From positions 2,176,001 through 2,240,000 of the forward strand of contig OZ271918.1 of NCBI GenBank assembly GCA_965602015.1: DNA of 64,000 nucleotides, written 5' to 3'. Of this stretch, positions 48,901 through 54,900 are shown piece by piece. This DNA is from Salinispira sp. (lineage in GTDB: Bacteria; Spirochaetota; Spirochaetia; DSM-27196; Salinispiraceae). Numbering within the stretch: the first letter of the stretch is position 1; each line of letters starts with the position of its first letter. Position numbers: made by a program.

Positions 48901-51900
48901 CGGCAGGTCGCTAAAAAGCCCCACTCCCCGGATTTGCAGGGTCTGGTAGATGAACTTGAAGAGATTTGCTACCTGCAGGGCGACGGTTCGGGATACCGCA
49001 ACCGCCGGCTTCTGAGAAGCGCCATCGCCAAACGGCTGCCGAGCCTGGAGATACCCGAAGATGAACCGGAATACTGACCCGATACCCTACTCCCGCCCCG
49101 AGTTGGGCGCTGAGGAAGAACAGGCCGTACTGGAGGTTCTGCGAAGCGGATGGCTCACCACCGGCAAACGGACCCTTGATTTCGAGAGGGAGTTTGCTCT
49201 GGCAGCGGCTCCCGGCGGAGAGTACCGGGCGTTGGCGGTCAGCTCGGCAACCGCCGGTCTGCACATCGGCATACGCGCCCTCAATCTTCCGCCGGGGTCT
49301 GCGGTGGCTCTGAGCCCCTACACATTCGCCGCCAGCATTAACAGTATTTTATACAACGGCCTTGAGCCTCTTTTGGTGGATTGCCTGCCCGGGGGATACC
49401 ATCTGGATCCTGCAGCTTTGGAAGCGGCGATAACGCGCCGGGGCAAGAAAACCCTCGTCAGGTCCAACTCAGCCGCACGGCGGTCCGGCCTTGCGGGGCT
49501 TGCCGGCCGGGCGCGGGAGCTGCGGGCGGTTATGCCCGTTCATTTCGCAGGATGGGAGGAAGGGGGACAAGAAATCGATGAGATTGCCTCGGCCTGCGGT
49601 TTGGAAGTGATTGAAGATGCGGCCCACAGCTACCCGGCCCGCAGGACTGACCGCGGTACGTACGCCCAGGGCACCCGGGGCAGGTTCGGCGTCTTCTCCT
49701 TTTACGCGAACAAAACCATCACCACCGGCGAAGGCGGGATGATTCTCACTGCGGACCATGAACTGGCCAAACGCATTACCAGCTACCGGCTTCACGGCAT
49801 AAGCCGGGAGGTTTGGGACCGCTACACATCCGACAAACCATCGTATCACTATGACATCGAGCTGCCGGGTTATAAATACAACCTGCCCGATATTCTTTCA
49901 GCCATCGGACTTGTGCAGCTCCGACGGGCCGAGCAGCTGGCTGAGCGGCGGAGGAAAATTGCCATGGGCTATGCGGCGGCCTTTGCCGACCGGGATTGGA
50001 TTATCCCCCCTCCGGGCAGTCAAAATGAGATTCCCCGTTCCCATTCATGGCATATTTACAGCCTCCGGCTCGTGCTTCCCCGGCTGAGCATTACCCGGGA
50101 CGAGTTCATTTGCCTGCTGTCCGAGCGGGGAATCGGCAGCTCGGTACACTTTATTCCCCTCCACCTGATGAGCTACTACCGCAAGCGCTTCGGCTTCAAG
50201 CCCGGACAGTTTCCCAGGGCAATGGAAGCCTTTGAATCCACCATCAGCCTCCCGATGTTTCCCGGCCTGGATGAGGATGAAATGAGGCGCGTAATTGATG
50301 AAGTGCTGGAAATCGGTGATACTCATTACAGGGGCGCTTAACATCTCATAACCGGGCTCCTTCGGGATCATCAATGGTAAACAGACGCAGCGTACAGGAC
50401 ATTCTCTCCGGCAGCAGCATATTCCTGCACGAGTACCAGGTGCGCGACGGTTGGTACTGCCGTATTCTCCGCTCCACCATTATTCGGGGACGCATAAAGC
50501 GGGTGCTGGTGGACCCGGAATTTATTTCCGCCGGGGCCTATCTGATACAGCGCAAGGATATCAGCGGGGACGCCGACCTGTCGATTTTCGACGAATCCAT
50601 TCCCATTCTCGCCGGGGAGGAGATCCATTTCTTCGGTCAGCCGGTGGCGCTTCTGGTCGCGCCGGCGATTGACCTTCTCAACGCTACCGAGAAAATGATC
50701 CAGATCAGATACGACGAGTTTCCCAGCCTCCCGGAGCGGCTTGTCGATCCTCAGCAGATTTACCGGGAGGAGGAAAAGAGCATCGGCAACCCGGGTCTGA
50801 TGTGGGAGAAAAGCAGTGAATCGGTGGAAAGCAGCTACTACCTCGGTCCCCAGACCGACGTGCGTCACGAGGGAACCGGCGCGAGGGTGCAGCGGGTCGA
50901 CGGGGAACTGCGAATCGTCGCGCCTACCATCTGGCCCCAACTCATCGCCGACTCACTCCACAGGGCCACCGGGGTGGAAAAGGACCGAATCAATATTCAG
51001 CCGACGAATCCCGGGGTGTTTCACGACCACCTCATGGTAGACGGCACCTTGAACGCCTTGTACGCGGGGATCGCCGCGGATGTCACCGGAAGGAATATCA
51101 TTCTGGATATCAGCGAAGAAGAACGGCTGTTGTTCGGCACCCGTCAACCGCCCATTTACGTGAAGCACCGCCTCGGTTTGGGTGCAGACAAGGAGGTGCT
51201 GGTCAACGACGTGGTTGTGGACGTGAACACCGGAGCCTTTGGTTTGTTTACTACGGAGATGGTCAACCAGATCCTCGCCGCCGCGCCAGGACTGTACAAA
51301 AGCGCGTCATGGCGCCTGCGAATCCATCTGTACCGGAGCAATCTTCCGCCCATGAGCATATTTCACGGGTTTCCCGTCACCCTGCTTCAAATCCCGGCGG
51401 AAATTCAGGCCAACCGCATTGCAGAGATAAATCAGGAAAATCCCGCCGAATGGCGTTTGAGGAACCTGCTGGGCCCCGGCGATACCGCTCCACCGGAATT
51501 TACCGTTAAAAAAAGAATGGATGACGGGGGACTTATTGAGGAACTGGACCGGATTTCGGATTTCAGCCGGAAGTACGGTGCCTGCGAACTGCTGCGCAAA
51601 CGACGGGATCCCGGGGAGATTTTCAGCAACCTGGGTTCGCGGATGCGCCTCAAGGGAGTGGGCATGGCCTTCGGCTTTCAACCCGCGGGCTTCAGCCGGA
51701 CCACCGAAAAAGCCATCCAGCCGAAGGTCAAGCTGCGTCTGGAAACCGACGGCTCGCTTCACGCATACATGACCACCGCGCCCGGCGCATCGGCGGCCAA
51801 ACTCTATATCCGCAGAATAATCAAGGAAGAGCTGAACATCGAAGCGGATCAGATCGTCCTTCACACCAAGGATTGCCGGGAGATACCCGATTCAGGCCCG

Positions 51901-54900
51901 GTATGTCTCTCCCGATCCATCACCGTGGTAATGGACATACTCAGACAGGCTTGCCGCCGGCTGCAGAAAAAGCGCTTTAACGATCCCCTTCCGCTGGAGG
52001 TCATCGGCGCGCTCCGGAATCCCCGAAAGCAGGACTGGAACCAGGATATCTACAAGGGCGATCCGTTTCTCTACCGCAGCTATGGCGCCCTGGCCCTGGA
52101 AGTCGAAGTGGATCCCATCACCTATATTCCGGAGATTTCCGGAATCTGGATGTTCGTCGATGCGCCTCACCTTCTCAATGTAAACCAGGCCAGGTCAGCC
52201 CTCGAGGGAAGTATCATTCAATGTCTCGAATGGGTCCGGGGCTGGCACGGCGAGTTCAGCGGCGGTGTCCTGGATCTAAAAGGCGCGGATATCCGCAATT
52301 ATCGGGAAAGCAGCCGAGTTCCCCGGATTACCATTGATTTCAAGAGGGAGCGGGACGGGAGTAAAAGCACGGGCAGCCAAAGCGGGTTTCGGGATCTGCC
52401 CTACGCCCTGGTGCCCGCCGCATATCTTTCGGCATTGAGCCAGGCCACCGGGGGATACTTCGATCGGATTCCCGCTGACAGCGAGATGATTTATTCCTAC
52501 GTCCAGTCGGAGGATGAGAATGAAGATACGGACTGAATTCTACCTCAACGGTGAACAGCAGGTGAGGGAACTGGATGCCAGCACCAGCCTCATGGATTTG
52601 CTTCGCGGAGAATTCGGCCAGAAGTATCTCCGGGAGGGCTGCCGCAGGGGGCATTGCGGAGCCTGTACCGTGCTGATGGACGACTATCCCGTGGCATCAT
52701 GTCTCGTGCCGGCCTTTAATCTGGCGGGAACCCATATAGAAACCCTCATGGGACTCATGGAAGAAGAGGATTTTTCCCTCATCGAAACCGGTTTCCTTCA
52801 GACCGGCTTTACTCCCTGCAAGTACTGCGCTCCGGCGAAGATCATGATTACCGAATCCATTCTGAGGCAGGACGGGGGTCCCCCTTCTGAGGAAACGATT
52901 TTGCGTTATACCAGGGATTCCTGGTGCAACTGCACGAGCAAGGCGGGCTTCGTCCGGGCAGTTCAGGCTGCCGACGCCCTGAGGCGGAAACGGAGGGCTG
53001 CGAATGCGAATCGCCGATGACCGCCGGATATTTTTGCCCCGCAGCGTCAACGACGCCACCACCATACTCCGCCAGTATCCGGGCATACTCGTTCTCGCCG
53101 GGGGGAGTGAAATTCAGCATTCCAGCCCCGGCGAACCGGTTATAAACCGCGATATTTTAGCGGTCCACAATATTGAAGAATTAAAGAGGATATACCGAAG
53201 CGACAGGATGCTGGAGATTGGCGCGGGGGTGACGTTGGAGCGGCTCAGCCGCTTCGGAGGGGATGTGGTGCCCAAGGGTCTGGCGGAGGCCATTCTCACC
53301 CAGCCCCATGCCCCGGTCCGGGGCATTGCGACCATCGGGGGGAACCTGTTGGTCCATCCCCGGTACTTCTCGTTGAGGCACTATCTCGCCCTGGTAGATG
53401 CCCAGGTGGAGCTCCGCAGGAGCGGGGGCAGCCGTTGGCTGTCGGTGGCCAGGCTGCGGGATGGGGATAACAACCCCCAGCTTCATCAGGAGCTGCTGAC
53501 GAAAATCCGCATCCCGGTTAACCAGTGGAGCCATCAGAATTTCCGCCGGTTTTACTCGGCGAAGCAGAACATCGATTACGGTTTTTGCGCCTTGGCCTCG
53601 GTGCATCGGGGCATTATCGAAGATATACGAATCGCCTATCTGTTCACCGGGCTTCAGAGCTACCGGAACCGGAACAGCGAATCTCAACTCATAGGCCGGC
53701 GCCTCCCCCTGCCGCAAAAGGATCTCAGGAACTACCTGAGCGATACCATCGGCGGATGGAAGAAATCAGAGCACTGGGAACACTCCGAACCCCTCATGCG
53801 CGACCGGCTGCGGAATCTCTCCGCATGGTTTATTCACAGTTTGAACAAATCCTGATATATCTATAGCGGGAGGGTTCATGAAGGAATTCGTACATCTGCA
53901 CAACCACTCGGACTTCAGCCTGCTGCGAGCCACCAGCACGGTTTCCCGATTGGTAAAGCGGGCCTCCGAAATGAAGATGCCGGGAATAGCCCTGACCGAC
54001 GACGGCAACTTGTTCGGGGCCTACCGATTCTACCAGGAATGCGGCGGCGATGACCCTTCCATTAACCCGATCGTCGGTTGTGATTTTTTTATGGCAGCAG
54101 ACAGCCGGCACAACAAATCGATTACGGAAAATGCAAAGCAATACCAGCGGATAGTCCTTCTGGCCATGAGCGACGAGGGGTACCGGAACCTCATTGAGCT
54201 AAGCTCGGCGGGGTACACCGAGGGCTTTTATTACAAGCCGCGTATCGATAAGGAGCTTCTGCAAGCCCACTCGAAAGATGTCATCGCCCTCTCCGGGGGT
54301 CTGGGAGGCGAGATTCCCCAGCTGATCACCCGTGGCCGCCTCGATGAAGCCCGGGATGCCGCCGCATGGTACGCCCAGCTCTACGGACCGGAGAGATTCT
54401 ACCTGGAACTGACCAACCACGGAATTCCCGAGCAGCAGACGGTGAACCGGGCCCTGATCGGGATGTCCAAAGAGATGGGCATTCCCCTGGTGGCTACAAA
54501 CGATACCTACTATCTGGACAGGGACGATTCCCATGCCCACGATGTACTCTTGTGCATCGGCAACAAGCGCAAAATAAACGATCCGGGGAGATTTGAATTC
54601 AGCTCCGATCAGTTCTACTTCAAAAGCGCCGAGGAAATGTGGACTATTTTCGCTGACCATCCCGAAGCCCTGACAAACACGCTCAAAATCAACGAGATGT
54701 GCAATCTCAAAATGGAGCTGCCGGGCCCCCTGCTGCCTGACTACGACATTCCGCCGGAGTTCCCCGGTCCCGACGAATACCTGCGCCACCTGTCATTCGA
54801 GGGGCTGGCGATGCGTTACGGACAGATTAACGATGAACTGCGCGAGCGGATGAACTACGAGCTGGACACCATAATCAGCATGGGCTTTACCGGATACTTT

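Follow-up and report, generated by a model that had tools for sequence, protein, structure and literature searches.

Introduction

Heterotrimeric xanthine dehydrogenases (XDHs) and related molybdenum hydroxylases such as R. capsulatus XdhAB, PucCDE and CoxLSM are built from three subunits, encoded in the order large-small-medium (L-S-M) in some spirochaete XDHs, and they combine a molybdenum cofactor (Moco) site with FAD pyrophosphate motifs and two four-cysteine sites. Even when Moco is lacking, the fold is stable, as in demolybdo forms of xanthine oxidoreductase (XOR) and CO dehydrogenase (CODH; 1ffu, title), and a structural role of inactive XOR has a precedent in milk (PMC13653126). Moreover, “orphan molybdoproteins” of the XO family are encoded in genomes without Moco synthesis, for which a 2018 survey reported no sequence features marking Mo-independent forms (PMC6147048).

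Loci of this type are also present in pathogenic spirochaetes. The Borrelia burgdorferi genes bb0554-0556 (“xdhACB”) have been published as encoding a Moco-dependent XDH (PMC9993122), and a 2023 review repeats this function (PMC10566445). Whichever of the three genes carries an insertion, fitness is lowered under peroxide and in ticks, and a deletion mutant is viable in culture, without motility or shape defect, but peroxide-sensitive and non-infectious in mice, and is rescued in trans (PMC9993122). The deletion was also rescued by added urate, and the wild type, but not the mutant, became more sensitive with 1 mM allopurinol; the authors could neither detect urate nor confirm the enzyme (PMC9993122). 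A screen placed the same genes in a membrane-damage response group (PMC5333916). In T. pallidum, TPANIC_0079-0081 (coxL/coxS/coxM; PMC5956850, supplement) lie behind capD and a DegT gene and are annotated as XDH/CODH, the main text being silent on them (PMC5956850).

Here we describe a related three-gene locus (“the trio”) from a Salinispira sp. genome (G000), located in a stretch of 64,000 nucleotides termed the window (C1:2176001-2240000), and compare it across the class Spirochaetia. A literature search covering few subscription papers returned none calling the trio family Moco-less or linking the Borrelia, Treponema and free-living loci, and a search on the Treponema genes returned nothing relevant.

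The trio locus

In the window, the trio comprises three overlapping open reading frames (ORFs) on the forward strand, which encode a large subunit of 720 aa (50374..52536), a small subunit of 166 aa (52520..53020) and a medium subunit of 283 aa (53004..53855). For the small subunit, the start at 52520 is favoured over an alternative at 52514 by the spacing of a GGAGG. The Pfam domains (MoCoBD_1/2, Fer2/Fer2_2 and FAD_binding_5, respectively) bear out the initial annotation, which had correctly delimited 50374..53855 as encoding the three subunits (large, [2Fe-2S] and FAD) of an XDH-like complex. All three proteins score far under the NCBIfam XDH cut-offs, e.g., 105 against 784 bits for pucD.

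The gene run, likewise on the forward strand, opens with a LoaP-type NusG paralogue (47051..47602; NF033641, 131 bits against a cut-off of 125), followed by an EpsC/CapD-type nucleotide-sugar 4,6-dehydratase (47599..49077; PF02719) and a DegT-family aminotransferase with a catalytic Lys (49061..50341; PF01041), both of which are context separable from the trio. Downstream, the dnaE ORF (53878..57480) opens a syntenic block dnaE-yggT-recG-rsmD, where dnaE, recG and rsmD were named by reading the sequences and YggT from Pfam. A promoter scan performed no better than chance.

A large subunit without its Moco site

The predicted structure of the window large subunit (AF2, pLDDT 84) has the XDH large-subunit fold, with a Foldseek TM of 0.87 to R. 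capsulatus XdhB (1jro_B) and, in VIA, a Z of 39.8 and an rmsd of 3.3 A over 693 aligned positions. Fold-core columns are retained, while the Moco-contact columns are all lost. Compared to a genuine paralogue of the same genome (G000:C1:2649601-2651913), the Gly loop, FRGFG, MGQG, ASR and catalytic-Glu segments are replaced, as had been noticed initially. Among 145 family large subunits the GG[GA][FY]G loop does not occur (0/145) and FRGFG occurs once; as regards the other Moco-binding motifs (GQG, A-S-R, Q-x-x-GG), the columns Q473, A512, Q609 and G612 are lost, and S513 and R514 are partly retained. Within the replaced Gly-rich loop (residues 212-221; 51007..51036, forward strand), the equivalent of Glu802 is Met in the window protein, and no family member has Glu there (0/145). 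The column equivalent to the catalytic Glu1261 is Glu in only 59/145, and Asp in the window protein. Judged by these motifs, the trio complex almost certainly neither binds Moco nor hydroxylates purines.

The motif loss is strong evidence for Mo independence. A search of G000 (99.67% complete) for MoaC, MoeA and the XdhC chaperone, not extended to MoaA or MoaD/E, yielded none of the three, in agreement with the earlier view that Moco synthesis is missing; this is weak evidence, since G000 also carries a MocA-like gene along with two Mo hydroxylases whose motifs are intact.

Newly conserved residues line the old substrate funnel (W187, H190, F292, E295), alongside the inherited R299 and F440 and a hydrophobic residue at the Glu802 equivalent. 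Trp187 (50932..50934), aligned with bovine XOR Asn768, is W in 133/145 members, where the 12 genuine enzymes have C or A; Glu295 (51256..51258), aligned with Ser876, is E in 131/145 members and in 1/12 genuine enzymes. This signature is absent in genome family f30 (W187 to N/K, E295 to N/D), E295 is R in genome G249, and the window protein itself has L190 and Q299; a shared ligand is therefore uncertain. Two basic segments stand out on the same strand. The helix SDFxRK...KKR (residues 395-411; 51556..51606) contains a new, nearly invariant Arg399 (99% of the 145 members plus 5/5 f30 proteins), in a region where genuine enzymes are basic as well, with median net charges of +3 vs +4. The new motif KxRFxxPLP (residues 525-541; 51946..51996) includes R534, F535, L539 and P540, which are conserved in 81-94% of the family and absent in genuine enzymes; the median net charge of the segment is +4 compared to -1 in genuine enzymes, and f30 is not basic there.

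Small and medium subunits

The window small subunit has both [2Fe-2S] ligand sets complete, a Pro in place of the Gln before CxxC and an Arg-rich tail. This Gln is found in 0/160 family small subunits and in 12/12 genuine enzymes, a loss coordinated with that of the Moco contacts in the large subunit. The Arg-rich tail is present in 115/160 family members and 1/12 genuine enzymes. All eight Cys ligands persist in 138/160; exceptions occur even within the 29 best loci, where the C-terminal site of L024 has none of its four ligands left and that of L026 is short of two.

In the medium subunit, AGG and ATxGG are present in the window copy (as ATIGGN) and in most members. The GTD Asp and NASP are lost family-wide, including the NASP segment of the window protein, and the segments on the flavin-ring side (GTD Asp, NASP, GCGEGECG loop) are remodelled throughout. 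A new set is conserved instead, consisting of R65, R68, E71, E136, R138, W145, R/K167, R169 and W175. The word RT[ED]RY[LIF][ED][IFL]G[AS] has 195 matches in 185,579 genomes, with 184 relatives, and the 80 matches listed are all from spirochaetes. Both clusters and the FAD motifs are retained in 121/159 loci, and thus redox chemistry is still of importance in the majority of lineages. The initial annotation, which had the small subunit keep its cysteines and the FAD subunit its motifs, does not hold as a general rule.

Distribution and piecemeal loss of cofactor motifs

The trio was found in 131/151 Spirochaetia genomes, a near-universal presence that accords with its description as a lineage-wide fixture. 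The range first given was too narrow, since large-subunit profiles miss very degenerate orthologues (f30; G068, G115). Among the 29 best loci, the Fe-S and FAD genes are adjacent in 29/29 and DegT is present in 28/29, as reported. The independence from Moco synthesis is supported, with no MoaC match in 76/130 trio genomes counted; the number of class genomes with MoaC, given as 49, became 48/121 good-quality class genomes upon recounting.

In a tree based on independent MAFFT alignments, the trio (33 members) forms one clade, set apart from 12 genuine spirochaete XDHs with a FastTree support of 1.0. L-S-M-ordered spirochaete XDHs (L002, L192-L202) constitute the nearest clade, and f30 falls inside the trio clade. 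The family has longer branches than genuine XDHs, and long-branch attraction may group degenerate members. The 11 best matches from other classes (L192-L202) are all motif-intact XDHs; very degenerate copies may also exist in other classes.

Cofactor motifs have been lost to different extents, although the genes themselves remain whole. Fe/S II and the FAD motifs are gone in f30 (5/5), Fe/S II in G249, both clusters in G036 and every motif in G068 and G115. ESM Atlas did not class the G115 small subunit as Fe-S type, and its AraC/cupin matches (0.90, few shared features) were set aside. The dN/dS ratio is 0.05-0.31 in 14/15 trio gene pairs (one pair was saturated), and amounts to 0.20-0.26 for L and M of G068 and G115; trio genes with lost motifs remain under purifying selection. 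In four termite-gut MAGs, S-M and L occupy separate loci, all intact. Of the redox or structural role initially proposed, the redox part holds at most for lineages that retain cofactor motifs.

The Borrelia and Treponema loci

An apparent absence of the trio from f30 was rejected as an artefact of large-subunit divergence, as orthologues were found there. The f30 proteins match the family profiles with E values of 6e-25 to 2e-22 (S), about 1e-27 (M) and 2e-3 to 4e-6 (L). For the large subunit, hhalign gave a probability of 86.6% (E 4.5e-6 over 543 columns) and ESM features 0.92 with only 153/256 shared, modest scores for an assignment that also draws on synteny. An AF2 model of this subunit from 5 sequences reached a pLDDT of 32.

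The putative f30 orthologues match B. burgdorferi bb0554-0556, a link that runs through f30 and not through direct comparison of the B. burgdorferi sequences. Both loci are three-gene operons, with 622/155/289 aa in B. burgdorferi (PMC9993122) and 616-623/153-156/287 aa in f30. Of four published operon primers tested (PMC9993122), two have sites within f30 S and M at 3-7 mismatches out of 28, compared to 12 in the window locus, and the other two do not map. While bb0554-0556 were published as a Moco-dependent XDH, their counterparts in f30 have neither Moco nor FAD motifs and are short of one cluster, whereas the window copy has both clusters and FAD motifs; MoaC (0/6), MoeA (0/3) and XdhC (0/3) were not found in f30. 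Urate synthesis by the Borrelia form is very unlikely for these reasons.

The T. pallidum locus shows the trio gene order, and its five lengths equal those of the G249 locus (538/412/740/155/282 aa). Whereas the former is annotated as XDH/CODH, Moco motifs and the ligands of the N-terminal cluster are missing from the G249 copy.

EpsC, DegT and flagella

The trio and EpsC co-occur in 94/151 genomes, and DegT is present in 53/59 named loci with more than 1.5 kb upstream. Yet the trio occurs without an EpsC orthologue in 37/151 genomes (among them each of the 6 f30 genomes and 5 near-complete ones of f21) and EpsC without the trio in 10; G004, G042 and G136 are cleanly devoid of the trio, and their DegT abuts dnaE. 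The tie to an EpsC/DegT amino-sugar pathway put forward in the initial annotation is not upheld. EpsC tracks flagella, not the trio (EpsC and fliE: 100 both, 33 neither, 4 and 14 discordant). A flagellar role for the trio was rejected, given 30 trio genomes without a fliE match and a Borrelia mutant without motility or shape defect (PMC9993122).

The Schiff-base Lys is present in 104/104 DegT ORFs matching the motif. In DegT-family dehydrases of the E1/ColD type, His replaces this Lys and a flavin/Fe-S reductase is needed. Since DegT here retains Lys, it is not such a dehydrase; an E1/E3-type deoxysugar system, with its obligate dehydrase-reductase pairing, was rejected, as the trio-DegT pairing also breaks in both directions.

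Possible functions of the trio

Our best explanation, which we hold with close to even confidence, is that the trio constitutes a scaffold of pseudoenzyme type, in which the ligand funnel has been remodelled, docking surfaces are new and the flavin/Fe-S chain provides redox input as an option. The trio would have arisen by duplication of an L-S-M-ordered XDH-family operon, apparently at the base of the class Spirochaetia, and selection would retain the three-protein scaffold. The new residue sets on the medium and large subunits, whose conservation is observed, are likely to form a docking surface, presumably exposed, for a putative partner. The complex may bind a small planar ligand and/or sense the redox state from FAD via Fe/S II to Fe/S I, and may pass the signal to this partner; the most plausible site is the inner membrane, and the process served would be maintenance of the envelope and under peroxide stress. 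This redox chain would be an ancestral, optional input, the scaffold being retained wherever the genes survive. The Borrelia allopurinol and urate results fit a purine link and are explained only loosely by this scaffold.

A Mo-free oxidoreductase, passing electrons from NAD(P)H via FAD and both [2Fe-2S] clusters to a substrate in the emptied cavity (peroxide, quinone or heterocycle) or to an external acceptor, is possible but doubtful. It would account for the cofactor motifs in 121/159 loci and the newly conserved funnel lining, and demolybdo XOR retains flavin-site activity; Borrelia mutants are peroxide-sensitive (PMC9993122). However, the orthologues of the sole phenotyped locus lack FAD motifs and Fe/S II, G068 and G115 keep low dN/dS ratios for L and M without any motif, and the flavin-ring side is remodelled family-wide. 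A nucleic-acid-binding complex acting in replication or repair via basic patches is unlikely, even though it would explain the place of the trio between ligA and dnaE-recG: the order ligA-L-S-M-dnaE survives the loss of EpsC/DegT (L060-L062, L066, L179, L183), f30 retains ligA nearby, and basic motif and Arg-rich tail fit. In f30, however, neither the second basic motif nor the tail is kept, the trio-dnaE link is broken in many Treponema-like loci, and deletions indicate that the block synteny is general.

A redox or structural part in the EpsC/DegT pathway, as initially suggested, is improbable; the frequent co-occurrence, and the position of even the cofactor-less G068 and G115 copies behind EpsC-DegT, are set against the two-way discordance, the retained Lys of DegT and the 30 trio genomes without a fliE match, while EpsC tracks fliE. 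The published view of a genuine XDH making urate as an antioxidant is very improbable, despite the urate rescue and the allopurinol effect on the wild type only; the motif-intact Mo enzymes of G000, without MoaC/MoeA, do imply that Moco salvage may exist. The lost Moco motifs, together with the Glu802 and catalytic-Glu columns, contradict this view, and the f30 genomes, the undetected urate and the unconfirmed enzyme speak against it. Urate is a general scavenger, and classical inhibition by allopurinol depends on Mo-bound oxypurinol; covalent binding of oxypurinol is named in the title of structure 3bdj.

Implications

With the trio, Mo independence of an XO-family protein can be diagnosed from sequence across an entire class, a question left open by the 2018 survey (PMC6147048). 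Unlike the unloaded state of a normal enzyme in demolybdo XOR/CODH, the loss is genetic and diagnostic; new funnel and surface residues have appeared, the genes are MoaC-independent, and cofactor motifs are dispensable in some lineages. Annotation of the spirochaete trio genes as xanthine or CO dehydrogenase would be wrong. Tentatively, we picture an ancestral, class-defining three-subunit metalloenzyme turned into a ligand- or redox-sensing scaffold, which shed its cofactors singly down to motif-free copies; the Borrelia form, required for survival in ticks and mice, would lack Mo and flavin, and its remaining four-Cys site might be a rare Fe-S client of the f30 NifU-like protein, or a zinc site. 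The natural series from motif-complete to motif-free forms, plus harmless free-living versions, would be of use for biochemistry.

New here is the apparent tie of highly degenerate orthologues to B. burgdorferi bb0554-0556. Since the trio matches a Lyme-disease locus published as a working XDH, this infection-essential complex probably does a different job, which challenges its published function as well as the idea of targeting xanthine metabolism there.

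The XDH-like trio and its fold

The xanthine dehydrogenase (XDH)-like trio at the window locus is real, and its fold family is already known. Its large (L, 720 aa, 50374-52536), small (S, 166 aa, 52520-53020, alternative start 52514) and medium (M, 283 aa, 53004-53855) subunits are encoded on the forward strand by ORFs that overlap one another. They carry the Pfam molybdopterin domain of the XDH family, [2Fe-2S] domains and an FAD domain, respectively; despite these domains, the trio scores far under the NCBIfam cut-offs. LoaP, EpsC and DegT genes lie upstream, and dnaE lies downstream. 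The structure predicted for L by AF2 from a 24-row alignment (pLDDT 84) resembles that of R. capsulatus XdhB: TM is 0.87, VIA Z 39.8 and rmsd 3.3 Å over 693 residues. A genuine XDH paralogue is encoded elsewhere in the same genome (C1:2649601-2651913).

Loss of the molybdenum cofactor site

Family members were gathered from class-wide handles and 80 named GTDB loci (163 L, 171 S and 174 M rows before filtering); near-duplicates (>97% identical) and partial sequences were taken out, and 12 motif-intact spirochaete XDHs served as reference. Judged by its motifs, the complex has no molybdenum cofactor (Moco) site. The absence of Moco-binding loops, noted initially for L, extends through the family: GG[GA][FY]G occurs in 0 of 145 L sequences, FRGFG in one, and Glu never occupies the Glu802 column, which mostly holds L/I/V. 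This is the same change as in the human Glu803Val mutant, which aligns at that column. The catalytic-Glu column is not conserved, since Glu occupies it in 59 of the 145 and Asp in a further 26. Also gone are GQG, the late GQ/GG columns and the Ala of ASR, a motif whose Ser and Arg persist in about two thirds. In S, the Gln before CxxC, a pterin contact, is found in 0/160 family members versus 12/12 genuine enzymes. The glycines and prolines of the fold core are retained, and the loss is specific and coordinated rather than a general decay.

Elsewhere in the Salinispira genome (C1:2640000-2667000; loci L186 and L187), two Mo hydroxylases with intact motifs are encoded together with YgfK and SsnA in a cluster of the purine/selenium type; next to it lie genes for a MocA-like cytidylyltransferase and an ABC transporter of the BtuF/heme type. 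Searches of this genome for MoaC, MoeA and XdhC gave no match despite these hydroxylases, and the cluster may import Moco or molybdopterin. No second XDH match was found in G064, a genome of the same genus.

Optional redox cofactors

The redox cofactors are optional for the trio and are lost piecemeal, under purifying selection. In 121 of 159 loci the two cluster sites are retained together with the FAD motifs; two or three of the exceptions may reflect alignment wobble. The initial annotation, which had S keeping its cysteines and M its FAD motifs, thus holds for these loci but not for several lineages. The N-terminal cluster site is gone from f30 (a family with highly degenerate orthologues matching Borrelia burgdorferi bb0554-0556) and from genomes G249, G090, G033 and G061, the C-terminal site from loci L024 and L175, and both from G036, L145 and L152. 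No motif is left in G068 or G115, yet their trios still lie behind EpsC-DegT; they were assigned by position, the G068 subunits L, S and M reaching E 7e-10, 7e-4 and 2e-8 in a small search. Genes with lost cofactor motifs remain whole, and dN/dS is 0.05-0.31 in 14 of 15 trio comparisons, the other being saturated. Even where the pyrophosphate motifs persist, the flavin-ring-side segments are remodelled family-wide.

The surviving 4-Cys site of the f30 S subunit is a candidate client for a NifU-like protein. Near C1:80,000, a weak NifU_N match is present in 3/3 f30 genomes (G026, G055, G145); SufBD was not found in f30 genomes (0/2).

Range and origin of the family

The trio family is one clade: in a tree from independent MAFFT alignments, 33 members separate from 12 genuine enzymes with a split support of 1.0. 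As genuine spirochaete XDHs share the L-S-M gene order, duplication of that clade is the likeliest origin of the family. The trio is present in 131 of 151 sampled class genomes (130 in one count, plus G115 found separately), 90 with inspected loci and 41 by profile score, the latter with M at E 1e-46 or better except in G125, G107 and G124. No MoaC match occurs in 76 of 130 trio genomes, which bears out the earlier view of a lineage-wide complex independent of Moco synthesis. An M-subunit word search of 185,579 genomes returned 195 matching stretches, 184 of them relatives; all 80 of those listed come from spirochaetes, among them Breznakiella homolactica and Treponema primitia. Elsewhere in the phylum, the 11 best matches inspected from other classes yielded no trio member; all were genuine XDHs.

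In one MAG the trio occurs on two contigs (L124 and L130), reflecting duplication or bin contamination.

Separation from EpsC and DegT

Of the 29 best loci, 28 have DegT upstream of the trio, as do 53 of the 59 named loci whose flank is long enough to tell. The proposed tie to an EpsC/DegT amino-sugar pathway fails nevertheless, and the trio is separable from these genes: among 151 class genomes, 37 have the trio without an EpsC orthologue (orthologues were accepted up to E 1e-95 or on synteny, and a fragmented G016 match was included; full-length CapD matches and an ambiguous G131 match scored absent) and 10 have EpsC without the trio. Incomplete MAGs raise these counts, but completeness is 94-99% in all six f30 and five f21 (another family) genomes that enter them. 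In G004, G042 and G136 the trio is cleanly gone and DegT adjoins dnaE. In four termite-gut treponeme MAGs (L108, L113, L123 and L126, with L154-L157), intact S-M and L are placed separately, away from DegT; in three of the four, S-M is divergent from genes reading like fabH-fabD-fabG.

The Schiff-base Lys is present in 104/104 DegT motif matches. EpsC/DegT (47599-50341) are suggested to make a flagellar glycan precursor, because the EpsC orthologue tracks fliE (both in 100 of 151 class genomes, neither in 33, discordant in 4 and 14, with kin not independent). For the EpsC-DegT-trio block, conserved synteny governed by a LoaP antiterminator is the best reading.

The LoaP-type gene (47051-47602) heads a tightly overlapping run reaching into dnaE, and stays with the trio where EpsC/DegT are lost (L010, L048, L049, L071). 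Divergent from the operon, a very acidic 997-aa protein with a C-terminal SPOR domain (43423-46416, reverse strand) is conserved in position and variable in length. In G028 (69% complete), dnaE lies in several frames (L072:11525-14980), probably through assembly errors.

Counterparts in Borrelia and Treponema pallidum

The M profile matched all six f30 genomes, which the L profile had missed. Five f30 loci share the order ligA, divergent gene, L (616-623 aa), S, M and PTS genes; f30 L aligns with the family by hhalign (86.6%, E 4.5e-6, 543 columns), and its ESM features lie near a spirochaete MoCoBD cluster (0.92). The motifs for Moco and FAD are missing from these copies, as is the N-terminal cluster; MoaC (0/6), MoeA and XdhC (0/3 each) were not found in f30 genomes.

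In Phelan et al. 2023 (PMC9993122), bb0554-0556 (622/155/289 aa) form an operon described as "xdhACB". Its deletion leaves growth and appearance in culture normal but makes the mutant sensitive to peroxide and unable to infect mice; complementation in trans rescues it. The likeness to f30 is judged from lengths and primers, not from the sequence of B. burgdorferi: of four primers tried, two find sites inside f30 S and M, mismatching at 3-7 of 28 positions (12 at the window locus), and the other two find none. The genes are also grouped with a membrane-damage response (Ramsey et al., PMC5333916) and listed in PMC6516651 and PMC10566445. T. pallidum TPANIC_0077-0081 (PMC5956850) agrees in gene order and in all five lengths with the G249 locus, and the latter is without Moco motifs and N-terminal cluster ligands.

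A proposed remodelled scaffold and its possible role

New conserved residues of L are W187 (92%), H190 (70%), F292 (71%) and E295 (90%), aligning with XOR Asn768, Lys771, Leu873 and Ser876; R299 (66%) and F440 (70%) are inherited and align with Arg880 and Phe1009. Lys771 and Leu873 are residues of the XOR inhibitor site. Asn768, Ser876, Arg880 and Phe1009 are placed in the same site by PMC12708773. Except in f30, the old substrate funnel therefore seems to have been relined. A second new group, probably surface-exposed, comprises L R399 and a KxRFxxPLP motif, S F68 and an Arg/Glu/Trp set in M; surviving in f30 are L R399, F535, P540 and Q690, S F68, and M E71, E136, K/R138, K167, K169, W175 and P235.

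That the trio is a true XDH is very improbable given the motif losses; the published case for bb0554-0556 draws on a predicted fold, on rescue by urate and on epistasis with allopurinol at 1 mM (PMC9993122). Urate could not be detected in that study. The rescue and the epistasis count against a pseudoenzyme and are not fully explained by one. A Mo-free NAD(P)H oxidoreductase, which would suit the loci that keep clusters and FAD motifs, is unlikely. A nucleic-acid-linked complex is improbable, and so, for all the shared synteny, is a component of the amino-sugar pathway.

The genes are already known but misnamed. A pseudoenzyme reading was not found in the literature searched, most subscription papers lying outside its coverage; a term search of PMC10434068 gave nothing further. 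Peng et al. 2018 (PMC6147048) raise Mo-independent "orphan" XO proteins and report no sequence marks for them; the supplements of that study may list the trio genes as orphans. Milk XOR offers a precedent for a structural role of the inactive protein (PMC13653126). With close to an even chance, we tentatively favour a scaffold that would bind a ligand and/or read redox state and would dock on a partner, with upkeep of the envelope as the probable setting. In Borrelia, according to PMC9993122, the role of the counterpart locus is peroxide resistance and host survival.
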